In this document: piece after piece, positions 2,082 through 58,412 of the stretch | How the letters are laid out: the number at the start of each line of letters is the position of its first letter | How positions within the stretch are numbered: position 1 is the first letter of the stretch | NCBI GenBank assembly: GCA_021463465.1 | Contig: JAJTYH010000003.1 | Coordinates: forward strand, 211,549-275,548 | Reading direction: 5' to 3' | Source of the DNA: a bacterium | GTDB taxonomy: Bacteria; Patescibacteriota; Dojkabacteria; SC72 | Length of the DNA stretch: 64,000 bases | Program-made: the position numbers and the translations under genes | Notes under the pieces: model-generated | Told to the model about the DNA's origin: nothing | Databases searched by the model: none | Seen by the model: the letters and a program-made list of their open reading frames with translations, nothing else

Positions 2082-2180
2082 TAAGGATTTAAGATGTTAT
2101 TCTTTGCCAATATTTCATTGTATCGGGCAAAGCTCTGGCATTCTAGCAGATATTTGACATCAATTCATCAATTAAATAGT

Positions 2181-3629
2181 ATGAAGTTAATGAAAAATAT
2201 ATGGAAATACGTATTAATTGCTATTCCCGTGCTACTTTTAGTCGCTAGTGGAACCTTCTATTTCATACAGATGCCAACGCAAGAAAAACAGAATCAATAT
2301 GCAGGACTTATTGGTCACGGTAACGCCTTCCTGGAGCAGAAGGAGTATGCTAAATCTTTGAATGCTTTTAATGAAGCTGCATCGCTCTTGCCAGCAAGGT
2401 TTGAGGCATATGAGGGAGCCACCAAGGTTTTGGTGGCAAAAAATCAATTAGGACAATTAGCTACCTTACTAGATAACGCTGGAATGAATTTATCATCTGA
2501 AGAGAGGTCGAAATTGTATGCCATGTTAGGTAATGGCTATTTAGCAATTCAAAACCCTTCTCAGGCACAGATCTACTTTGAAAAAGCCATTGATCAAAGC
2601 TACCAGAATGATGTTGCCAAAGTGGGTTTAGCAAAATCATTATTGATGCAAGGAGATTATATGCGCGCTAGAAACTACTTAGATATTCCTACTAATTCCG
2701 CTTTATATGAAGAAGCATACGTTCTTAAACTCATTTCTAAATTCAGCGATTTAGAAGGGATTAAGGAAGTTTTAGCTGAAAACCTTACTCCAGTGGATCC
2801 GAATATAAAGAAGATTATAGATGATTATAAGAATGTGGCTAAGCGTGATGCTGGTGAAGAGCTTTATATAAAGGCTTTAATCGGAAGAGTTTACGTGAAT
2901 AGCGGATATTCGAAAATGGCGGTTGCGCTACTTGAACTGTCTAAAGACGCTCTTATGGAATACTCTGACGGTTTGTATGTATTGTCAGTGGCATACTTTA
3001 ATTTGGGAGATTACGACGATGTGACAACTTTGCTTAAAGATTTCTCTAATCCCAATGCTGACCATGACTTTTATCTCTTAGCTGCAAGGTCCTACCAATA
3101 TACAGGTGATAATACTGAGGCGATTAAGAGTTTTGACTCAGCGGTTGCCAGCAGTGGGGATAAGAATGAGGAGGTATATAAAGAGTATGTGAAGTTCCTG
3201 CTGAGCGAAGAACAGTACGTTAAAGCTAAAGAAGTATTGGATAAGGCAGATAAGAAATTCGATGAAGTTTGGATTGATACTGCTTATCTTCAAATGTATA
3301 CCTTGCAGAAGAATATTAGTAAGGCTTCTACTTATATAGAAAAGCTTTCAAAGGTTTCTGATATGACTGATTTAGAGAAAAAGGAGTACATGTACTGGGC
3401 TATCAGTCATTATATTGATCAGCAAAAAAATAATGATGCCATAATCGTTTTAGCCAAATTAAAGGAGTTGGATAAACAGAATGCAGAGTACTACTTACTT
3501 GCCGGGCGATTACACTTACAAACGGCAAATGTAACAGAGGCTAAGATTGAACTCGAGCAGGCTATTGACTACGATCTCACTGGCGAGGTGGTGGAAGAAG
3601 CGAAGAAGTTATTGTCACGGGTCAACTAG
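2181..3629 (+). CDS. TPR-repeat protein with N-terminal TM anchor
   Basis: Repeated 34-aa A/Y/L-rich TPR-like units; start at MKLMKNIW, followed by a hydrophobic helix. Confidence 0.55.
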   Translation: MKLMKNIWKYVLIAIPVLLLVASGTFYFIQMPTQEKQNQYAGLIGHGNAFLEQKEYAKSLNAFNEAASLLPARFEAYEGATKVLVAKNQLGQLATLLDNAGMNLSSEERSKLYAMLGNGYLAIQNPSQAQIYFEKAIDQSYQNDVAKVGLAKSLLMQGDYMRARNYLDIPTNSALYEEAYVLKLISKFSDLEGIKEVLAENLTPVDPNIKKIIDDYKNVAKRDAGEELYIKALIGRVYVNSGYSKMAVALLELSKDALMEYSDGLYVLSVAYFNLGDYDDVTTLLKDFSNPNADHDFYLLAARSYQYTGDNTEAIKSFDSAVASSGDKNEEVYKEYVKFLLSEEQYVKAKEVLDKADKKFDEVWIDTAYLQMYTLQKNISKASTYIEKLSKVSDMTDLEKKEYMYWAISHYIDQQKNNDAIIVLAKLKELDKQNAEYYLLAGRLHLQTANVTEAKIELEQAIDYDLTGEVVEEAKKLLSRVN

Positions 3630-3694: not shown

Positions 3695-5797
3695 ATGGCG
3701 TCCCAAACGTATAATGTTAAATTTGATTTAGAGAAGATTCGAAATATCGGAATCATTGCTCATATCGATGCAGGTAAGACTACTACTACTGAACGACTAC
3801 TCTTTTTCACAGGTCAAAAACATAAGATTGGTGAGGTGCACGATGGTGCAGCCACTACTGATTTCATGGTACAGGAGCGAGAGCGTGGTATTACTATCAT
3901 GTCAGCAGCTGTAACGTGTTTTTGGACTTTGGACGGTGTACAGCACCGAATTAATATTATTGATACTCCAGGGCATGTGGACTTCACAGCGGAGGTCGAA
4001 CGATCGCTTCGTGTACTTGATGGTGCCGTTGTCATTTTTGACGGTAAGATGGGTGTTGAACCTCAGTCTGAGACTGTATGGCGTCAAGCTTCTAAATATA
4101 ATGTGCCTAGAATGTGCTTTGTTAATAAGCTTAATCTTTTAGGTGGAGACTTTTATATGAGTTTGGCTTCTATTAAGGAGCGACTTAGTCCTAAGGCTTT
4201 GGCATTGACTTTGCCAATTGGAAAAGAGACTGAACTCAGAGGGTTTGTCGACTTGATTGATATGAAGGCTTATATGTATGACAATATCGACTCAACTGAG
4301 CTTCGTGCAGAAGAGATTCCAGCTGATTTAGTCGAAAAAGCCAAAGAATTCAGACATACATTGGTTGAAAGGGTAGCTGAGCAAGACGATGCGATGATGG
4401 AGAAGTATTTCGCTGGTGAAGAATTGACTGTCGAAGAACTTCGAAAGGGACTGCGAAAAGGAACGCTTAGTGGAGAAATATTCCCTGTTATGGGTGGAGA
4501 TTCTCGTACAGTAATCGTTCATAAGCTGCTTGATTATATTTTAGTGTGTTTGCCATCTCCAAAAGATTTACCTCCTGTTAAGGGAACTCACCCTAAGACT
4601 GAGGCAGAGGTAGAGCGTAAAGTTGATGAGAATGAGGCTTTCTCAGGTTTAGTGTTTAAAATTGTTTCTGATACACATATTGGAACTCTTTCATACTTCC
4701 GAATCTATTCTGGAAAACTTTCGGCTGGTTCTTACGTCTACAATTCAACTAGAAATATTCGGGAAAGAGTGGGCCGTCTTGTACTTATGCATGCTGATGA
4801 TAGAGAAGAGGTGCCTGAGCTTAGAGTCGGGGATATTGGTGCAATCGTAGGCCTTAAAGATTCGTTAACTGGAGATACATTGTGTGACGATGCAAATCCT
4901 ATTGTGCTTGAGAAGATTAAGTTCGCTGAGCCAGTTGTTTCTGAAGCTATTGAGCCTGTGACTAAGTCTGATCAAGAGAAGATGGGTATGGCGCTTGCAA
5001 GACTTGCTAAGGAAGATCCAACTTTCTTAGTCTCGAGTAACTCTGAAACAGGCCAGACTATTATTTCAGGAATGGGCGAGCTTCATCTTGAGATTATGGT
5101 AGATCGTCTTAATCGAGAATTTGGCGCTCAGGTGAAAGTTGGTAAGCCACAGGTTGCATACCGAGAAACTGTAAAGCAGTCCGTGAAGATGGAGGGAAGG
5201 TATATCAAGCAATCCGGAGGTAAAGGTCAATATGGTCACTGCTGGTTGAGAATTGAGCCTAATGAGAAGGGTAAAGGTGTTGAATTTATAAACGAGATCA
5301 AGGGTGGAGCTATTCCTAGAGAGTATATCCCCTCAATTGAGAAAGGTGTAAAGGAAGCTTCCCAGTCGGGTGTAATTGCTGGCTATCCTGTGGTTGATGT
5401 CAAGGTTTTCGTTTATGATGGTTCTTATCATGATGTTGACTCTTCTGAAGCAGCCTTTAAAATTGCTGGTTCAATGGCGTTTAGAGATGCATGTAAGATT
5501 GCAAATCCTGTTCTACTTGAACCTATTATGGATGTCGAGGTCACTGTTCCTGATAAATTTGTAGGTGATGTCACAGGTTCGCTTAGTAGTAAGCGTGGTC
5601 AGATTCTTAAGACTGAGGTTAAAGGTAATCTTCATGTGATTAGTGCTCTTGTGCCTTTGGCAGAACTCTTTGGATATACTACTGAACTTAGGTCGATAAC
5701 TAGCGGTCGAGGATCGGCTTCGGTCGAGCCTTCCAACTATTCTGAAGTACCTAGAAACGTCGCAGAAGAGATTGCTGGGGTACGTGCTGGTAAATAA
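3695..5797 (+). CDS. fusA: elongation factor G
   Basis: [13 protein letters not shown]-domain motifs; 700 aa. Confidence 0.97.
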
Positions 5798-5929
5798 CCT
5801 AGAGATTTAGTATATACAGCTTGAAAGGTGAAGGCGTTTTTGCTAAGATACGATGCAGTTTTGAGTGAAGCCTTAAAGTTTGACTTAAGACTGCCTTAAA
5901 AAATCAAATTAAATTAATTAAAAAATATA

Positions 5930-7096
5930 ATGGCTGATTTTGTAAGAACAAAGCCACATATGAACATTGGTACACTTGGTCACGTCGACCACGGTAAGAC
6001 CACACTTGTTCGTGGTATTTTGCGAGCATTCTCTCCGGATGCTGATAAGTTCATCGATAAGCTTGATAAAGACCCAATCGCAAGGGCTAAAGCTATTACT
6101 ATCTCTGTAGCTCACGTAGAGTTTGAGTCTGACAATAGACACTATGCTTTGGTAGATTGCCCAGGTCACAGAGATTATATTAAGAACATGATTACGGGTG
6201 CCGCACAGATGGACGGTGCTATTCTTGTTATCTCCAGCTCTGATGGTGCTATGCCTCAGACTAGAGAGCACGTATTGCTTGCTAAGCAGGTCGGTGTGCC
6301 TAAGATTGTTGTTTTTATTAACGATTTCGGTGGTACTGATCCTGAAATCCTTGAGCTTATCAAGTCTGACGTTTCTGATGTGCTTGATAAATATGGTTAC
6401 GGTAAAGATGCTCCTATTGTTATCGGAAGTGCACTTGCTGCATTCGAAGGTAAAGAGGAAGGTATTGCTAAGATTAAAGAGCTTATTGCTGCTGTTGATG
6501 CTTATATTCCTGAGCCTCAGCGAGCTTTGGATGAACCATTCCTTATGCCTATTGAGGATGTATTCTCAATTGAAGGCCGAGGAACAGTTGTAACCGGAAG
6601 AATCGAAAGAGGGAAAGTTACTGTAGGTGATGAGGTTGACGTACTCGGGCTTGGTAAGGCTGACCAAAAGACAGCTGTTACAGGTGTTGAGATGTTTAAT
6701 AAGTCTCTTAAGGAAGGTATTGCTGGAGATAACGTAGGTATTTTGCTTAGAGGTCTCAAGCGAGAAGATGTAGAAAGAGGCCAGGTACTCTGTAAGCCAG
6801 CTTCAGTAAAAACACACTCTGAATTCAAGGCTTCAGTTTATATCCTTAGCAAAGAGGAAGGTGGAAGACACACAGCCTTTGTATCAGGATATAAGCCTCA
6901 GTTCTATGTTAGAACCGCCGATGTTACAGGTGCTGTGACACTTGGTGATGGTGTTGAAATGGTAAACCCAGGAGATAACGTTGAATTCACCGTTGCTTTG
7001 GTAACTCCGGTTGCCATTGAGAAAGGTCTTAGATTTGCTATCCGAGAGGGTGGTCAAACCGTGGGCCAAGGTGTTGTAACGGATATCGTTAAGTAA
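5930..7096 (+). CDS. tuf: elongation factor Tu
   Basis: [18 protein letters not shown], NKxD motifs; 388 aa. Confidence 0.97.
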
Positions 7097-22298: not shown

Positions 22299-22685
22299 GT
22301 GAAGTATTTTGAAGGAATAGGACGAAGAAAAACTACATCCGCACGGGTCAGAGTATACTCTGGCAAGTCAATGTCTACAATTAATGGTAAGGCTTTTGAT
22401 GAGTATTTTGGTGATAAATCATTAGGTAATGACGCGGTTAAGCCAATTTCAGTTGCAGGCCTCGATGGTAAAGTATATTTCACTGCTAAAGTTTCAGGTG
22501 GTGGAACTACTGGTCAAGTCGGAGCTGTAGCTCACGGTTTGGGAAGAGCGTTAGTAAAAATGGATGAGACCCTTAAGCCTGACCTACGAAAAGCTGGGTA
22601 TATCACAAGAGATCCTAGAATGGTGGAACGAAAGAAGTACCACCAAGTAAAAGCTCGAAAGAAGTCACAGTTCTCAAAGCGATAA
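22299..22685 (+). CDS. rpsI: 30S ribosomal protein S9
   Basis: S9 signature; C-terminal ...KKSQFSKR. Confidence 0.93.
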   Translation: MKYFEGIGRRKTTSARVRVYSGKSMSTINGKAFDEYFGDKSLGNDAVKPISVAGLDGKVYFTAKVSGGGTTGQVGAVAHGLGRALVKMDETLKPDLRKAGYITRDPRMVERKKYHQVKARKKSQFSKR

Positions 22686-24300: not shown

Positions 24301-24325
24301 AGTATAATTAGAGTGTAAGTATCCT

Positions 24326-24615
24326 ATGCAGTTGCTGTTACAATTTATGTAGCAGAGGAAAGTCCGGACTTCATTTCGGCTTCGTATTAACGAAGTAAGT
24401 ACCTGTGCGAGCAGGGTGGGAGTAATCTCACGGATAAAAGGGCAACAGAAAGTATACCGCTATCGCAAGATAGTAAGGGTGAAAAGGTAGTGTAAGAGAC
24501 TACCGGTCAAATAGCGATATTTGATGCATTGCAACCCCTATTTGAAGCAAGATACAACAAGTATCGCTTAGACAGATAGCTGCATAAAACAGAATTCGGC
24601 TTATGGGATGCTTAC
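24326..24615 (+). ncRNA. rnpB: RNase P RNA (bacterial, compact)
   Basis: P4 5' strand GAGGAAAGTCCGGAC; AAGGGTGAAAAGGTAGTGTAAGAGACTACC (P10-P12 consensus-like); 3' ACAGAATTCGGCTTAT (P4 3' strand). Ends are approximate. Confidence 0.8.
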
Positions 24616-24617
24616 AT

Positions 24618-25355
24618 TTAGTCAACTTCAATATATCGAAACCTCTCGTACTTTTTTCCGTTTTTCAAAAAATCCGTAAAAAAGTTTGCTGAGTCAGTTG
24701 CTTGTTCTACTGAATATTGAGAAGAATGTTTTGCGTGTGCCTGTATTCTGGTTTCCAAGAAGTCCGTTACCTCTATGCCTAATGTATCCAGGTGATTGTA
24801 ATAATCAACTAATAAAAGCTTTGTACATTTTGCAGGTTTGACAACATTATTTAGTTGCTCAGGGAAGAAATTTCTATCCCTTGAATATGGATATGCAGCA
24901 TCAATCGCTAATAGTCCAGTGTTTTGATGGTCACGGTGATTTACCCAATTAATCCCTTGTTCAAACCTTATTATTTTGTCTTCCGGATTGTGAGTTACTA
25001 ATACATCAGGTTGGTATTTTCTAAAAATTCTGGCCAATTTACTAATATTATCAACCGTGTATTCAACAGAACCATCGCCCAAATCTAGGTAAATAGAATT
25101 ATTTTCTGAAACGCCTAATACTTTCATTGAGGCTAAGTCTTCGTCTTTTCGCAAATGTCTTAATTGATCTTCAGGTATTAGCTCATCTCTAGAGCCTTTG
25201 TTACCCAATGTCATTTTGACACTGACGACTTTTATACCAGCCTGGATAAGTCTTGCTATTGTGCCACCTGCATATAATTCAGTATCATCCGGATGTGCAA
25301 AGACGCAGATAACTGTTTTTGCACCATCAAATATTTTATTAAAACTGTCTTCCAT
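24618..25355 (-). CDS. PIG-L/LmbE-family N-acetylglucosaminyl deacetylase
   Basis: VFAHPDDTELYAGGT motif. Confidence 0.72.
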   Translation of the reverse strand: MEDSFNKIFDGAKTVICVFAHPDDTELYAGGTIARLIQAGIKVVSVKMTLGNKGSRDELIPEDQLRHLRKDEDLASMKVLGVSENNSIYLDLGDGSVEYTVDNISKLARIFRKYQPDVLVTHNPEDKIIRFEQGINWVNHRDHQNTGLLAIDAAYPYSRDRNFFPEQLNNVVKPAKCTKLLLVDYYNHLDTLGIEVTDFLETRIQAHAKHSSQYSVEQATDSANFFTDFLKNGKKYERFRYIEVD

Positions 25356-25365
25356 AATTAAGAAT

Positions 25366-26283
25366 TTATTTTAAACTGTTAACTAAGTCTTTTACAAGTA
25401 CAGGACTTTTGCCCTCCAATTGTAACTCCAGCAACTCAAGAAAACCTTCTTTGGTTTTGAAGATTAGTTTCTTATTGATGACTTTGTAAGGTTGATTGTC
25501 CACGAAAGATAATTCAGAGATACAGGATTTGAGAAGTTTCGTTCTTTTTCCCTCGAACATAAACCAAGCTACCGGCCAAGGAATATAAGCTCTAACCATT
25601 CGTTCAATATACTCCGCAGTCATTTCTCCCCATTTGATTTCGGCTTTTTCTTTCTTTAGGTCCCGTTCATAACAGTATGTTGCTTGAGACTCATCTTGGT
25701 CATAGGCTTTAACCTTGCCGTTTACCCAATCAAATAAAATATTGGGTAAAGCTTTAGCACTAATCTCTACTAGCCTCTTTCTAAGTGATTCGTTCGTATC
25801 ATCAGGCCGAATTTCTTCCTTTATTATCTTTAAGATTTGCCCTCGATCAAATTTTTCTGACATTTTTTGGAAAGTTACGCCAGTTTCTTTTTCACCGTTG
25901 AGAATAGCTGCTTGAATAGGCACAGCGCCTCTATATTTGGGCAGGATTGAGAAATGAATATTGATGCTCTTGTATTTGGGATATTCCAGAAAGAAACCAG
26001 GAATGATTTCACCAAAGGCCTTGCAAACAATGAGTTCAGGCTGAAAATGGTCCAAAGCTTCTTGATATCTCTTGACATTGTTATCTGTCATGAATACTTC
26101 TATATCCTTTTCCAACGCGTACTGTTTAACTGGGGTTGGGGTTAGGACTAGTTTTCTACCAACAGGTCTGTCTGGTTGGGTGATTACAGCAATGATCTTG
26201 AAACGCTTGTCTTCATCTAAGACTTTTAAAGTTTCAAGAGATTCCCAATTGGTACCTATATACAAGACTTTTATTGGTTCCAT
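25366..26283 (-). CDS. fmt: methionyl-tRNA formyltransferase
   Basis: HFSILPKYRGAVPIQAAILNGEKETGVTFQKM and an N-terminal formyltransferase fold. Confidence 0.85.
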   Translation of the reverse strand: MEPIKVLYIGTNWESLETLKVLDEDKRFKIIAVITQPDRPVGRKLVLTPTPVKQYALEKDIEVFMTDNNVKRYQEALDHFQPELIVCKAFGEIIPGFFLEYPKYKSINIHFSILPKYRGAVPIQAAILNGEKETGVTFQKMSEKFDRGQILKIIKEEIRPDDTNESLRKRLVEISAKALPNILFDWVNGKVKAYDQDESQATYCYERDLKKEKAEIKWGEMTAEYIERMVRAYIPWPVAWFMFEGKRTKLLKSCISELSFVDNQPYKVINKKLIFKTKEGFLELLELQLEGKSPVLVKDLVNSLK

Positions 26284-26306: not shown

Positions 26307-26936
26307 TTAGAAATCTTCAGTGGAGTATTCGCTTTCCGAAAAGGAGAGCTCTTTTTGGTCAAAGATTTGAAGAATGTCTTTAACTTCTTGTATGGGCTTT
26401 TTGAGGTAATCCCAAATATCTTGTTGCTTTACCCATTTATAGGTTCCTTCTTGGTTTTCGACCAACTCACCCCATGGGTTAATGAATCTACAAACAAAAA
26501 ATATTTTATCTTCCAATAACTTTTTCTCATTGTTATAAACGCGGTAATGTCGGATGCTGAAAAGTTCTGGCTCACCTACTAAACCAGTTTCCTCTTGAAG
26601 CTCACGTTTAGCTGCTTCTAAAATACTTTCACCTATTTTCACTTTGCCCGTAGGAAAACCTTGGTAGCTATAAAAAGGCGACTTCAAACGAGTATAAAGC
26701 AGGTACTCAGTTTCTCCGTTGTTTTCTCGTTGGCATGTCATTAGAACCGAAACTTTGGCTTGCTGTTCTATTGATGTATCTCCTAAATCCATCCGATTGG
26801 CAAGCTCCTTGCCTGATTCTGTCAGTACATATTTCCCTTCGACCTTAAGGACATAACCAGCTTTAGCTAATTGGTCTAAATGAAAAGTGAATTGGCTTCC
26901 TTCCATATCAACGGGTTTCATCTGTGAAAATTTCAA
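26307..26936 (-). CDS. NUDIX hydrolase with N-terminal winged-helix domain
   Basis: Nudix box GFPTGKVKIGESILEAAKRELQEETGL. Confidence 0.7.
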   Translation of the reverse strand: MKFSQMKPVDMEGSQFTFHLDQLAKAGYVLKVEGKYVLTESGKELANRMDLGDTSIEQQAKVSVLMTCQRENNGETEYLLYTRLKSPFYSYQGFPTGKVKIGESILEAAKRELQEETGLVGEPELFSIRHYRVYNNEKKLLEDKIFFVCRFINPWGELVENQEGTYKWVKQQDIWDYLKKPIQEVKDILQIFDQKELSFSESEYSTEDF

Positions 26937-26992
26937 GCCTTCTGAATAGAGCAGTTTCTGTAGAATTTTGAGTTGGAATTGATGGAATTCTT

Positions 26993-27724
26993 TTATGGTT
27001 TTATAAAGTTCATATTAAGTCTGTAAGGAGTTGTCTGTGAATTGATAAATTGAGGATATTTTATCACAAAGGCATCCGGAACCCCTGTCTCGAGTATAGC
27101 CTTTAATGTAAAGCCGTGTTTTGTAAAAGAATTGACGTAGGTTTGAAAAGTACGATTAATGAACGGAACTGTAAGATTATCGTTATGAGCAATGTTACCT
27201 TCAATTGTGATTTCGGAGAGGTAACCTTTATATTGTTGGAATTTTAAAAGACCTTGATGTTTTTCAGTCAGCCACTTAGCTGGATGTGTTACTGAAACAA
27301 TAAAATTGCCCTTTGGACTTATAATGTTAAAACATTGCCGAATTAATTTATCTAAGTCTTTGATGTACATCAGAGTAAGTTTTGCGGTAATTAATTCAAA
27401 TGTTCCACTAAACTGTGGAAAAGTATCCTCAAGATTGTGTTTTACAAAAGTAGCATTTGGATAGGTTTTTCTGGCGTACCTGAGCATCTTGTTGGAATTG
27501 TCTATGCCCATGACATTAGGGTAAATATTGGCTAGATCGTTAGTAAAGCGACCGTCACCACAACCTAGATCCAATGCATTGGAAATACCATTGGGGCAAA
27601 GACTAAGTATTGATGGGGTATTCACGTTCTTTTCGTAAGCAAATATTGACGTCTTATCTTGTTTGACGCTGTCAACATACTGCTCGAAAATAATGTCCCA
27701 GTAGTTTGTTGGCTGTTTTGACAT
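26993..27724 (-). CDS. class I SAM-dependent methyltransferase
   Basis: Motif I LDLGCGDGRF. Confidence 0.7.
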   Translation of the reverse strand: MSKQPTNYWDIIFEQYVDSVKQDKTSIFAYEKNVNTPSILSLCPNGISNALDLGCGDGRFTNDLANIYPNVMGIDNSNKMLRYARKTYPNATFVKHNLEDTFPQFSGTFELITAKLTLMYIKDLDKLIRQCFNIISPKGNFIVSVTHPAKWLTEKHQGLLKFQQYKGYLSEITIEGNIAHNDNLTVPFINRTFQTYVNSFTKHGFTLKAILETGVPDAFVIKYPQFINSQTTPYRLNMNFIKP

Positions 27725-27786
27725 GTTTGCAATCTTTTAAAAGAGCAGTTTTCGCCATAAGTATATGTCTGATAAGGTTTTATAAT

Positions 27787-27878
27787 CTAGTAAAGAGGAC
27801 TTTACTAGAAAATCGAGGTTTACTAAAGTAAACTTTACTAAATACTGCTTGACATACTTATTTGTTAAGGTAGTAAAC
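27787..27878. promoter_or_regulatory. cluster of palindromic TTTACTA/TAGTAAA operator-like motifs in a divergent intergenic region
   Basis: Perfect 9-bp inverted repeat CTAGTAAAG-agga-CTTTACTAG (27787-27808); GTTTACT-aa-AGTAAAC (27818-27833); further copies at 27835-27841 and 27872-27878; TTGACA at 27849-27854; TATAAT at 27781-27786. Confidence 0.45.
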
Positions 27879-27882
27879 GATT

Positions 27883-28830
27883 TTGGAGATCTCAACTCCT
27901 GAAAGTATTGTTAATGACTTGGCAGCTGTTCGTGGCCAACTAATTGACTTGCGTGAATCGAAAGTTCCAGACGATATGTCTTTCGGTGAATTGATATATC
28001 GTGCCACAAAGTTTGATAACTACTGGAGAGTTGGGGAAGTTACTGATTCCGACTTCCATGAGAATTGCGAAACTTTCCTCCGCGAGATAGTTCTTCTGGA
28101 AGAAAAAGTTAAAGAGGGTAACGCCGATGCAATAGGAGAACAGATAGGAGTGAGTCTTTTACTTGCTATACGGATTTTGGTTTGGAATTTCGGAATTGTT
28201 AGTCCACATGATTTGCTGTATGCAAAGTATTTAGCAAATGTAGATAAATACTTGATTTTGATGGCGGGAATGGAGGACATGGCTAATTTGAAGGCGCAAG
28301 TTGCACCTGAAATTTGGAAAGAGTTCCGAAAAGCAAACAAAAGTAACGACATTCACATGGAAAAGAAAAATGAATATCGTCATATATTGGATCTGATTGA
28401 TTCAAATAGCCGACCAACTTTTCCTTTCAACAGGGCAACTTTGAAGGCTTTCCATCTTGTCCAGCAGGAGTTTCTGATAAGAATGGGAAGGGACTTTTCT
28501 TTAGAGGAACTATGTTTTGAAGGAATGGTTGAGGAGTTGAAGGAGTTTGGGGAGGCGAGAGTCCTCCTTGAAAGTGATTTACGGGAGGATAGTCCTTGGA
28601 AGTTATTCTGTGCTTTCGAAGTCGCAGATGTTATGATTTATCTCACTCATATGCTCACCGTTATGGGTTTGGATATATCATCGGTGATAAAATCGGTCTC
28701 GGACCAAAAATATATTGAGACACTTGGGTTGGATGTGAGAACAGCCAGATGGAACCAATTTCTGAGACGTAAGAGATGGAGTAAATGGTTTGCATATACT
28801 AAATTACAATGGTTGAGTGAGTTTGATTAA
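27883..28830 (+). CDS. hypothetical protein with C-terminal MazG-like NTP pyrophosphohydrolase domain
   Basis: EELKEFGEA...FEVADVMIYLTHMLTVMGLD resembles the MazG EExxE/ExxD helices; TTG start. Confidence 0.4.
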   Translation: MEISTPESIVNDLAAVRGQLIDLRESKVPDDMSFGELIYRATKFDNYWRVGEVTDSDFHENCETFLREIVLLEEKVKEGNADAIGEQIGVSLLLAIRILVWNFGIVSPHDLLYAKYLANVDKYLILMAGMEDMANLKAQVAPEIWKEFRKANKSNDIHMEKKNEYRHILDLIDSNSRPTFPFNRATLKAFHLVQQEFLIRMGRDFSLEELCFEGMVEELKEFGEARVLLESDLREDSPWKLFCAFEVADVMIYLTHMLTVMGLDISSVIKSVSDQKYIETLGLDVRTARWNQFLRRKRWSKWFAYTKLQWLSEFD

Positions 28831-28832
28831 TT

Positions 28833-29873
28833 ATGAATAGTTTAGGGTTTGGAACAAAACCGATATTTATGCCTGATGCTACACGTGGTGCGGTCCGCGC
28901 GCTTACTACTGCTCAACTTAAGGCCACGGGTACTGACCATATAGTGGTAAATACGCTTCACCTATTGCTTTCTCCTGGTCCGGAGAGGGTTGCAGAACTT
29001 GGGGGTATAAAGAAGCTAATGAACTATGAGGGTACGGCCTTAAGTGATTCCGGAGGATATCAGGTATTTTCGTTACTTCATAGTAAAAAGTGGCAAGGAA
29101 AGATTACGAAGTTTGGTGCGGTATTCAAATCGCCTAAAGACGGTAGAAAACATGAACTTACACCCGAAAAGTCAATTGAAGTTCAAATGATGTTAGATAC
29201 CGATGTTATGGTAGTCCTCGATGATTGCAGAGACTCAAATGTCTCAAAAAAAGAGGCAGAGATAGCTGTTGAGTGGACATTAGATTGGGCAGACAAAGCT
29301 AAGCGACACTTTTTAAAGCTGGGACTGGATAAGAAGGGGAAATTGCTTTCTTGCGTTGTGCAAGGGGCAAGATTTCCTGAGTTAAGAGAGTTTTGTATGA
29401 AAGAGTTGATTAAGATAGGTTTTGATGGATACAACTATGGTGGAGTTGGAGGGTATGTCGTTGATAATAAAGGAGAATTAGCCTTGCCTGAAATGAAAGT
29501 TATTGCAGAGATGGTTCCTAAAGGTAAATTCCTTTATGCTATGGGTGTAGGGCGTCCACAAGATATCGAGTTTGCAAATAGAGAAATGGGCTGGAATGTT
29601 TTTGATACAGTTATCCCTACACGCAATGCTAGGCATGGTACATTGTACTGTGCAACTGAACCTGATGGAATTTTGCGGATTACACGCTCACGCTTTGCTA
29701 AGGATTTGCTACCGATTGAAAAAGGATGTGATTGCGAAGCATGTGTTAATTATAGTAGAGCATATATTCACCATCTACTTCGTAACGGCGAAATGACAGG
29801 AATGACCTTAGCAACTATTCACAACTTACGCTTCTATCAAAGATTAATGACCTCATTAGGAGGTAATTCTTAA
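28833..29873 (+). CDS. tgt: queuine/preQ1 tRNA-ribosyltransferase
   Basis: DSGGYQVFSL, VLDDC, GFDGYNYGGVGG, PTRNARHG; zinc site CDCEAC...HH. Confidence 0.85.
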   Translation: MNSLGFGTKPIFMPDATRGAVRALTTAQLKATGTDHIVVNTLHLLLSPGPERVAELGGIKKLMNYEGTALSDSGGYQVFSLLHSKKWQGKITKFGAVFKSPKDGRKHELTPEKSIEVQMMLDTDVMVVLDDCRDSNVSKKEAEIAVEWTLDWADKAKRHFLKLGLDKKGKLLSCVVQGARFPELREFCMKELIKIGFDGYNYGGVGGYVVDNKGELALPEMKVIAEMVPKGKFLYAMGVGRPQDIEFANREMGWNVFDTVIPTRNARHGTLYCATEPDGILRITRSRFAKDLLPIEKGCDCEACVNYSRAYIHHLLRNGEMTGMTLATIHNLRFYQRLMTSLGGNS

Positions 29874-36432: not shown

Positions 36433-36504
36433 GCCGCCATCGTCTAGTGGTTAGGACGTATGATTCTCAATCATAGAACCAGAGTTCGATTCTCTGTGGC
36501 GGCA
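36433..36504 (+). tRNA. tRNA-Glu (anticodon CUC)
   Basis: Cloverleaf: acceptor GCCGCCA/TGGCGGC, anticodon stem TATGA/TCATA with loop TTCTCAA, T-arm CAGAG-TTCGATT-CTCTG; no encoded CCA. Confidence 0.85.
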
Positions 36505-48505: not shown

Positions 48506-49060
48506 ATGTTAACTAGACAAAGAGCTTATGAACTTGTTGTCGAACATACGCAAAATAAAAACCTCATTAAGCATATGCTTGCCGTCGAGGCAGCTATGAG
48601 AGCATATGCTAAAAAGTTTGGAGAAAATGAAGAGAAGTATGCCGCCTTAGGACTCTCGCACGATTTTGATTATGAAAAAATGAAGGAACAGCATCCTTCA
48701 CAGTGGGGATATGATCTGCTAAAGGCAGAAGGTGCTGATGAAGACCTAATTCAAGGGATAGTGGGACATGCCGAACGGGAGAACACAGCTTCTAGAAAAA
48801 ATAATATGCATAGAGCATTATTTGCAGTTGACGAATTGACGGGATTTATTGTCGCTTACGCTTTGATGAAACCAAACCAAATCTCTGATGTTACTGTTGA
48901 AAGCATTATTAAGAAGTTCAAAGACAAGGCTTTTGCTAAAGGTGTTAATCGTGACGACATAACAAACGGAGCTGCTGAACTTGGCGTCTCACTTGAAGAG
49001 CATGTATCCATAGTTCTAGAGGCAATGAGAGGGATTAAGGAAGATTTAGGACTCCGATAG
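48506..49060 (+). CDS. HD-domain phosphohydrolase
   Basis: HMLAVE...LSHDFDYEK HD motif. Confidence 0.65.
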   Translation: MLTRQRAYELVVEHTQNKNLIKHMLAVEAAMRAYAKKFGENEEKYAALGLSHDFDYEKMKEQHPSQWGYDLLKAEGADEDLIQGIVGHAERENTASRKNNMHRALFAVDELTGFIVAYALMKPNQISDVTVESIIKKFKDKAFAKGVNRDDITNGAAELGVSLEEHVSIVLEAMRGIKEDLGLR

Positions 49061-57822: not shown

Positions 57823-57832
57823 TCCAAAACAT

Positions 57833-57906
57833 CGGGGTGTAGTTCAGATGGCTAGAATGCTTGCATGGGGTGCAAGAGGTCGCACGTTCAAGTCGTGTCA
57901 CCCCGA
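57833..57906 (+). tRNA. tRNA-Pro (anticodon GGG)
   Basis: Acceptor CGGGGTG/CACCCCG, anticodon stem CTTGC/GCAAG with loop ATGGGGT (G37), T-arm GCACG-TTCAAGT-CGTGT. Confidence 0.8.
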
Positions 57907-57926
57907 AAATATTCAATAAAATTCTT

Positions 57927-58412
57927 ATGATTCAAGCAACACTCCTTTTCCTTATAAAAAGAGAAAACGGAGATATTTCTCAAATTTGCCTTGCAATGAA
58001 AAAACGAGGTTTTGGTGTGGGTAAATATAACGGAGTGGGAGGTAAATTTGATAGTGAACTGGATAGTAATATTTTGGATACGGTCAAACGAGAAGCTAAA
58101 GAAGAAATAGGAATTGACATGGATAAATCCTGGCAAGTTGCTGACATGGATTTCTATTTCCCTCACAAGACTAAAATCAACATGAAAGTCAGAGCGTTCT
58201 TGACGGATAGATAGGAAGGCGAACCTATTGAAACTGAAGAGATGAAACCAGAGTGGTTTGACATAAAGAACATACCATATGAAAAAATGTGGGATGGGGA
58301 TGAATATTGGATATCAAGGGTAGTAAAAGGAGAGAAAGTTAGAGGTAAATTCACCTTCAACGACAAAGAAAAAGTGATAAAGAAATTGCTAACTAGAGTG
58401 AAGGTATTTTAG
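57927..58412 (+). pseudogene. MTH1/NUDT1-like NUDIX hydrolase interrupted by in-frame TAG (58212-58214)
   Basis: LAMKKRGFGVGKYNGVGGKF...TVKREAKEEIGI (Nudix box) then ...FLTDR*EGEPIETEEMKPEWFDIKNIPYEKMWDGDEYW continues in the same frame and aligns collinearly with human MTH1 on both sides of the stop. Confidence 0.6.

Follow-up and report, generated by a model that had tools for sequence, protein, structure and literature searches.

A palindrome cluster in a Dojkabacteria intergenic region as the probable operator array of a winged helix-Nudix protein

Results

A cluster of half-sites between two divergent operons

The window analysed here, a 64-kb stretch of a Dojkabacteria contig (JAJTYH010000003.1), contains at positions 27725-27882 an intergenic region from which two operons diverge and which holds a dense cluster of the 7-mer TTTACTA or its complement, TAGTAAA. 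On the minus strand, the adjoining operon begins with a class I S-adenosylmethionine (SAM)-dependent methyltransferase gene (26993-27724; Pfam Methyltransf_11/25/31), followed by a gene (26307-26996) for a protein of about 229 residues that joins a winged helix-turn-helix (wHTH) domain to a Nudix domain, hereafter the wHTH-Nudix protein, our proposed regulator. On the plus strand, the divergent operon (27883-29873) opens with a gene (27883-28830) for a 315-residue all-alpha protein, tentatively MazG/PRA-PH-like, and continues with tgt (28833-29873; TGT, 3.7e-95). Gene annotation agreed with a first-pass annotation of the same DNA on these flanking genes. Comparison with related genomes suggests that the cluster is probably the operator array of the wHTH-Nudix protein.

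Exact copies of the 7-mer occur five times in 27788-27877, at 27788 (−), 27801 (+), 27819 (+), 27834 (+) and 27871 (−); the sixth copy counted in the first-pass annotation, AAGTAAA at 27826, has one mismatch to TAGTAAA. A repeat search returned a perfect inverted repeat, TCTAGTAAAG-N4-CTTTACTAGA (27786-27809), which had been recognized before but whose arms are 10 bp long rather than 9 bp, together with the previously described palindrome GTTTACT-AA-AGTAAAC (27818-27833) and three overlapping tandem 20-nt units resembling TAGTAAAG-N4-CTTTACTA, starting at 27788, 27806 and 27821. These palindromes appear nested because TTTA[G/C]TAAA, the half-site together with its flanking bases, differs little from its own reverse complement.

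The first-pass annotation had proposed that an ordinary frequency of the 7-mer in this region would speak against its being an operator element. In the whole window the motif occurs 21 times, compared with 16.3 ± 4 in shuffled sequences, and is not over-represented overall, yet it is the most clustered of all 7-mers (five in 100 bp). Taking the rate outside the cluster (0.025 per 100 bp) as the Poisson background, the probability of at least five copies in any 100-bp stretch of 64 kb is about 1e-7. Scanning the window with a position weight matrix (PWM) trained on 57 related sites (see below) gave training-level scores at 27784-27845 only. The best score elsewhere, 15.9 for TGGTAAAGTATATTTCACTG at 22466-22485, was considered as a second operator locus and rejected, as the sequence lies inside a gene of the ribosomal-protein cluster, away from any promoter context, and is probably a chance match. 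Other clustered 7-mers included the palindrome AGCATATGCT, present at 48570-48579 and 48601-48610, 31 bp apart; both copies lie inside a coding sequence of 184 residues (48506-49060), and their proximity is probably coincidental.

The palindrome accompanies one gene family across Patescibacteria

We collected 80 loci from species-representative genomes by alignment of the regulator protein alone (13 sequences), and no locus was chosen for its operator. According to their record titles, some of which are evidently mislabelled, these loci come from Dojka-, Woese-, Ames- and Saccharibacteria and from other Patescibacteria. As the first-pass annotation had suggested, we checked whether the motif favours the upstream regions of particular genes: a site agreeing with the template at 12 or more of 14 positions was present in the 130 nt directly upstream of the regulator gene at 49 of 75 loci, against 0.5 expected by chance. 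Dojkabacteria differ in that the site is found one gene further upstream, in front of the methyltransferase gene that comes before the regulator gene. The 57 sites that served for PWM training gave the consensus TAGTAAAG-TCGA-CTTTACTA, a 20-bp palindrome followed by GA[T/C], and from Dojkabacteria to Saccharibacteria nearly every base of this operator appears to be conserved.

Two further searches gave the same association. A template-free count of 8-mers in the 72 non-Dojkabacteria loci placed TTTACTAG upstream of the gene in 27 of them (0.16 expected), with TTACTAGA and CTTTACTA as the other most enriched words. In the reciprocal direction, searching metagenome contigs for TAGTAAAS-N4-STTTACTAGA yielded 127 exact matches, 40 of which are followed by the regulator gene; the spacers are of the TCGA/TTGA type in these 40 and essentially random in the remainder, as expected for chance matches in AT-rich DNA. 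Among the closer genomes, a Dojkabacteria relative whose regulator is 59% identical carries CTAGTAAAG-ATAA-CTATACTAG and a second site upstream of its methyltransferase gene; it retains the methyltransferase-Nudix pair next to an unrelated plus-strand neighbour.

The arms of the palindrome vary symmetrically at position 5, giving TAGTCAA..TTGACTA, TAGTGAAG..CTTCACTA and TAGTATAG..CTATACTA. We compared these variants with the predicted recognition helix of the accompanying protein in 45 pairs that were unselected for operator sequence. The TTGACT half-site occurs only with [E/D]NN[Q/K]xxFH helices (7/9), TTCACT mostly with xYH helices (8/9) and TTTACT with the remaining xFH helices (21/27).

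The same operator, at the same promoter spacing, also precedes stand-alone Nudix genes of 145-157 residues at four metagenome loci (L123, L171, L139 and L183). Among the metagenome matches examined for additional regulon members, only these stand-alone Nudix genes recur, the other downstream open reading frames (ORFs) having either no match or a match to a glycosyltransferase. Across the retrieved loci, no common functional partner was found downstream of the regulator gene.

Candidate operators in the window

Operator 1 (27788-27807, minus strand; TAGTAAAG-TCCT-CTTTACTA) is the site closest to the minus-strand promoter, and its 8-bp arms form a perfect palindrome. Its PWM scores, 24.5 for the symmetric 20-mer and 29.8 for the 26-mer, are at or above the median of the training sites, and orthologous sites are found in the Dojkabacteria loci L005 and L009-L013. 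Operator 3 (27821-27840; TACTAAAG-TAAA-CTTTACTA) has one mismatch in one arm and a PWM score of 20.0, within the training range; its centre is 33 bp, about three helical turns, from that of operator 1. Between them, and overlapping both, lies the weak operator 2 (27806-27825; TAGAAAAT-CGAG-GTTTACTA), with one good arm and one degenerate arm. An exact lone half-site, TAGTAAAC, is located further downstream on the plus strand (27871-27878).

This array is the richest among the loci examined, most of which have a single operator. The middle site also occurs in L009 and L010, at 15 bp from each neighbour, which gives three-site arrays in 15-bp steps, and at both loci a homologue of the 315-residue protein is transcribed divergently from the array. 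In total, arrays are found in four Dojkabacteria loci with a divergent gene (the window, L009, L010 and L011/L005), and single sites in L012 and L013, where the upstream gene is co-directional.

Promoter geometry around the candidate operators

A −10-like hexamer, defined by A at position 2, T at position 6 and at least four of six matches, follows 52 of 58 sites at a nearly fixed distance from the end of the operator (...ACTA): 22 nt in 42 sites and 21 nt in 10. With a 17-nt spacer from this −10, the −35 hexamer reads TA+GAYW, its first two bases being common to the operator; in the 58 sites this place is occupied by TAGAYW, most often TAGATT (20) or TAGACA (12). This sharing of two bases accounts for the stronger conservation of the promoter-side arm relative to the distal arm in the 57-site consensus, and for a GA extension that is not mirrored on the other side. 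Relative to the inferred transcription start, the operator is centred about 43.5 bp upstream.

In the window, the candidate minus-strand promoter comprises a −35 element TAGATT (27784-27789) and a −10 element TATACT (27760-27765), which are separated by 18 nt, the −10 starting 23 nt after ...ACTA, and which precede the methyltransferase ATG at 27724. The final two bases of operator 1 are the first two of this −35 hexamer, so that the operator overlaps, by 2 bp, the candidate core promoter of the regulator's own transcription unit.

For the divergent operon, the promoter may mirror this arrangement. Operator 1 carries a TAGA extension on both sides (TCTAG...CTAGA), and a candidate plus-strand −35 TAGAAA (27806-27811) is followed, after a 17-nt spacer, by a candidate −10 TAAACT (27829-27834) that lies inside operator 3. 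Comparable arrangements exist elsewhere: in the metagenome loci L139 and L183, which have the same two-sided symmetry as operator 1, a single operator lies between the divergently oriented genes for the regulator and a stand-alone Nudix protein, and in L010 a divergent promoter (TATAAT) is embedded in the distal operators. The first-pass annotation had named TTGACA as a candidate plus-strand −35, placing it correctly at 27849-27854, with copies of the 7-mer over both promoter elements. The nearest upstream copy ends 8 nt before TTGACA, and only the copy at 27871-27877 overlaps a candidate −10, TAGTAA (27871-27876), which is the sole −10 candidate for this hexamer. We rank the TTGACA promoter second because its transcription would start approximately at the TTG start codon (27883), and the promoter mirrored on operator 1, which fits the geometry of related loci better, is the more probable one.

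The leaders in the window also contain ACTGCTC (27743-27749, minus strand) and ACTGCT (27844-27849, plus strand). A similar sequence, ACTGCC(C), is found again 8-14 nt downstream of the −10 in the leaders of the methyltransferase genes at the Dojkabacteria loci L009-L013, as it is in the leaders on the divergent side at L009 and L010. This sequence shows no enrichment across the window and could be a second regulatory site or an element of the start region.

The wHTH-Nudix protein

The protein comprises a wHTH at residues 6-66 and a Nudix domain from about residue 80, as delimited by Pfam, alignment and an AlphaFold2 model. The model, built with 61 homologues (predicted local distance difference test score, pLDDT, 93), shows a three-helix bundle with a beta-hairpin wing (helices 6-16, 23-26 and 33-45; strands 49-52 and 55-58), connected by a linker to a Nudix fold that is extended at its C-terminus. 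The wHTH remains below Pfam cut-offs, at 23.9 bits for HTH_45 (cut-off 25.5) and 22.2 bits for DUF7347 (cut-off 27.6), and a profile search against the PDB gave QsrR and AspA as the best, non-significant matches (E 0.06-0.5). The fold fits a winged helix, but no named family can be assigned to it.

The Nudix domain is recognized by Pfam (NUDIX, 1.7e-13) and has a complete Nudix box, GX5EX7REUXEEXGU (GKVKIGESILEAAKRELQEETGL), in which, among 61 sequences, G117, E123, E132, E135 and E136 never vary and R131 hardly does. Foldseek matches cover this part only: the best, MTH1 and Bacillus halodurans MutT, can be superposed on the C-terminal 150 residues with template modelling scores (TM-scores) of 0.74-0.81 (normalized to target length) and E values of about 1e-9, and the Nudix domain of NrtR (3gz8) ranks lower. 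By predicted box and fold, the protein belongs to the Nudix superfamily. In the Foldseek search no solved structure spanned both domains, the TM-score normalized to query length being at most 0.56. Members of the family are currently annotated as 'NUDIX hydrolase', 'MutT' or 'ADP-ribose pyrophosphatase', with DNA binding unmentioned.

Homologues are 229 residues long, and the regulator frame is open up to 26996. Their ATG overlaps the methyltransferase stop codon (ATGA); in this genome the corresponding sequence is ATAA (26993-26996, minus strand), which makes the expected start ATA, and the same ATA occurs in an independent assembly (L001). Upstream of the TTG at 26936, the first start listed, the frame remains open and is conserved, and initiation at that TTG would remove the first helix of the wHTH.

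Neighbouring genes and genome context

Two more genes extend the minus-strand operon: fmt (25366-26283; NCBIfam fmt, 232 bits, cut-off 201.5) and a gene for a PIG-L-family deacetylase (24618-25355; Pfam PIG-L). With gaps of 23 nt before fmt and 10 nt before the PIG-L gene, both (24618-26283) are likely co-transcribed with the regulator in a four-gene run of methyltransferase, wHTH-Nudix, fmt and PIG-L whose gaps do not exceed 23 nt. The order methyltransferase-regulator is conserved in L005 and L009-L014, and in L009-L011 the regulator gene is followed by fmt. A bacterial class A RNase P RNA (24316-24618, plus strand; 176.7 bits) lies convergent with this operon at its end.

On the other side, the 315-residue protein and two relatives match PRA-PH in the same C-terminal region with E values of 0.018, 0.0016 and 0.002, all below threshold. 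A profile search against the PDB gave no match for this protein, and its single-sequence AlphaFold2 model reached a pLDDT of 42, too low to assign a fold. The family is very small and fast-evolving, with five representatives in an exhaustive search of 1.84 billion protein clusters; at L009 and L010 the homologues lie on the divergent side, as in the window. In L005 (GCA_013558295.1), the operon divergent from the methyltransferase-regulator pair holds queA (2128-3171) and, further on, tgt (5001-6023), which makes queuosine-tRNA genes recurrent neighbours of the regulator in Dojkabacteria.

The window as a whole has bacterial content, including a ribosomal-protein cluster, RNase Y, YmdB, the RNase P RNA and tRNAs, and a megablast search for a phage origin gave no match in a phage collection. 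Its tgt has exact copies in several Logan assemblies as well as in the NCBI metagenome-assembled genome (MAG) GCA_020853275.1. The closest homologues of tgt and of the Nudix gene bear the label Candidatus Dojkabacteria (WS6), and a scan of species-representative genomes with tgt found no close relative. ARAGORN called a tRNA-Pro(GGG) at 57832-57907 (plus strand), overlapped by a listed ORF (57861-58214); at its gathering threshold the Rfam tRNA model detected only a tRNA-Glu at 36433.

Discussion

Probable assignment of the operators to the wHTH-Nudix protein

The first-pass annotation had read the cluster as operators for a dimeric DNA-binding protein at a divergent promoter, and the comparison across genomes bears this out. 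It had seen no regulator gene adjacent to the cluster, a point we correct here: the wHTH-Nudix gene, whose product it had named only as a candidate for a binding assay, is the second gene of the adjoining operon and is consistently linked to the palindrome. The alternative of a partition-like protein, also raised in that annotation, finds no support, given that no ParA or ParB genes lie nearby, that this is the sole motif locus in 64 kb and that the sites keep a fixed geometry to −35 and −10 elements. Physical binding of the protein to the palindrome is probable, and repression as the outcome seems reasonably likely.

Several observations weigh against this assignment or against parts of it. 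The whole case is one of comparative genomics. The association between recognition helix and half-site is confounded by shared ancestry and counts as supportive only. The regulon beyond autoregulation is thin and mixed, with stand-alone Nudix genes at four loci, a glycosyltransferase gene at one and uncharacterized genes elsewhere, and the genes downstream of the regulator are diverse (M50 peptidase, EamA, RuvB, TrkH, DHH and uncharacterized genes). At the locus itself, the ATA at the position of the homologues' ATG implies either a non-AUG start or the loss of the first helix; operator 2 scores 8.9, below the training minimum of 11.6 and thus below all training sites; the half-site at 27871 is unpaired at the usual spacing, and no 20-bp site scores there in the PWM scan. 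A consensus promoter scanner, under its own criteria, calls no promoter in the intergenic region.

We considered whether the same protein might bind the palindrome as a class II-type activator that makes contact with RNA polymerase from near −43.5. The position of the operator centre and its overlap of only 2 bp with the −35 hexamer argue for this, as a centre near −43.5 is the typical position of class II activators. On the other side, the promoters are already near consensus (TAGACA/TAGATT, a 17-nt spacer and aATAAT), whereas activator-dependent promoters usually have poor −35 elements. Further sites in the window and in L010 cover the −10/start region of the divergent promoter, in keeping with occlusion, and NrtR, the family nearest in function, is made up of repressors (PMC2330246), which together leave activation as an unlikely outcome. 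It is very unlikely that the sites belong to another, unlinked binder, such as a global regulator or nucleoid protein, and that the wHTH-Nudix gene is just one of its targets. The tie between protein and DNA is indirect, and a few good-looking sites precede other genes (stand-alone Nudix and glycosyltransferase genes), as such a binder would allow. Against this, the motif has a single locus in 64 kb, and no gene other than that of the regulator stands constantly beside the site in genomes with Dojka-, Woese-, Ames- and Saccharibacteria labels, the neighbours of the regulator gene being variable. No other DNA-binding gene is conserved nearby, and the half-site variants track the recognition helix of the wHTH-Nudix protein.

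The repeats could also be promoter elements that serve no dedicated regulator, with TTTACT acting as reiterated −35-like hexamers or the AT-rich stretches as UP-like elements. TTTACT does match TTGACA at four of six positions, and on the divergent strand of L010 it stands 16 nt upstream of a perfect TATAAT. Even so, the −10 on the regulator side lies 21-22 nt beyond ...ACTA, too far for TTTACT to be its −35, the palindromic form of the distal arm and the central TCGA is conserved even though both are located upstream of the promoter, and other promoters in the window lack the motif, all of which makes this explanation highly improbable. We give practically no weight to RNA hairpins (an attenuator or terminator) or to a chance product of AT-rich sequence. 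Perfect arms of 8-10 bp could fold if transcribed, and the symmetric changes at arm position 5 are those that pairing would demand; but the palindrome is upstream of the −35 and −10 of the accompanying gene and therefore outside that transcript, and its sequence is conserved beyond pairing across phylum-level groups. The region has no Rfam match, no T-tract follows the palindrome and no terminator was called. Chance is excluded by the clustering in the window (about 1e-7) and by the enrichment across genomes.

A possible autorepression circuit

Repression by the wHTH-Nudix protein could work as follows. A dimer would bind the 20-bp site TAGTAAAG-N4-CTTTACTA, and occupancy of operator 1 would block RNA polymerase at a near-consensus promoter of the sigma-70 type, resulting in negative autoregulation of the minus-strand operon (methyltransferase, regulator, fmt and PIG-L). 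The upstream sites at 27806-27840, mainly operator 3 on the same helix face, would cover the core of the mirrored plus-strand promoter, by which the same protein may also shut off the divergent MazG-like/tgt operon. The Nudix domain would be the sensor, and binding of a nucleotide-type ligand, probably with hydrolysis, would release the protein from DNA.

The stand-alone Nudix targets and the MazG-like neighbour, whose match is below threshold, hint at nucleotide 'house-cleaning'. We tentatively propose, as a possibility that we hold with less than even confidence, a substrate-sensing autorepressor across Patescibacteria, a kind of 'reverse NrtR', that would couple the level of aberrant or signalling nucleotides to sanitizing hydrolases (itself, stand-alone Nudix proteins and the MazG-like protein) and, in Dojkabacteria, additionally to tgt, queA and fmt.

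Significance for Patescibacteria

To our knowledge, almost nothing has been learned so far about how Patescibacteria (Candidate Phyla Radiation) regulate their genes. These bacteria have small genomes with few transcription factors, and most cannot be grown alone. The present analysis provides for them a specific candidate regulator-operator pair, consisting of a gene, a 20-bp operator with its PWM and a promoter geometry (−35 TAGAYW, 17 nt, aATAAT), which recurs in genomes whose labels span four or more candidate phyla or classes and which can be tested with recombinant protein and synthetic DNA, bypassing cultivation. It also adds a predicted DNA-binding function to proteins labelled solely as Nudix enzymes, and would represent, next to NrtR, a second type of Nudix-linked regulator that was assembled independently. 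Since its catalytic site is predicted to be intact, the protein may act both as an enzyme and as a reporter of its substrate. A literature search, of incomplete coverage, returned no description of the motif or of this domain architecture as a regulator.

Comparison with known systems

The C-terminal domain resembles the sanitizing hydrolases MutT and MTH1, on which it superposes with a complete catalytic box; those enzymes, in contrast, have no DNA-binding domain. As a putative small dimeric wHTH protein with palindromes over its own −35/−10 region, often in divergent regions, the protein recalls autorepressors of the MarR, HxlR and PadR families (e.g. QsrR), but it shows no significant membership in any of them, and its proposed sensor is a separate Nudix domain rather than a pocket in the wHTH dimer. 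It also shares with the 'trigger enzymes' NadR and BirA the combination of a metabolic enzyme domain, here with predicted catalysis, and a helix-turn-helix at the N-terminus that acts, in promoters of related genes, on a palindromic operator, which for NadR is TGTTTA-N6-TAAACA (PMC2330246); the enzyme folds and DNA-binding domains are, however, unrelated.

The closest parallel in function is NrtR, which has an N-terminal Nudix-like domain and a C-terminal wHTH, recognizes a 21-bp palindromic operator with a conserved GT-N7-AC core, and controls genes for the synthesis and salvage of nicotinamide adenine dinucleotide (NAD) with ADP-ribose as effector, its Nudix box being degenerate in most members (PMC2330246). 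Both systems fuse a Nudix fold to a winged helix and have palindromic operators of about 20 bp in the regulator's own promoter region, and for the wHTH-Nudix protein we likewise propose autorepression relieved by a nucleotide-derived ligand. In contrast to NrtR, the domain order is reversed, with the wHTH N-terminal and the Nudix domain C-terminal, the catalytic box is intact and invariant, and the operator, TAGTAAAG-N4-CTTTACTA, is a 20-bp palindrome of the form GT-N12-AC. Nor do the neighbourhoods of the wHTH-Nudix gene, in the window and at the other loci, contain NAD-metabolism genes, and the distribution seen here is in Patescibacteria MAGs. The wHTH-Nudix protein is thus not an NrtR, although its mode of action is probably similar.

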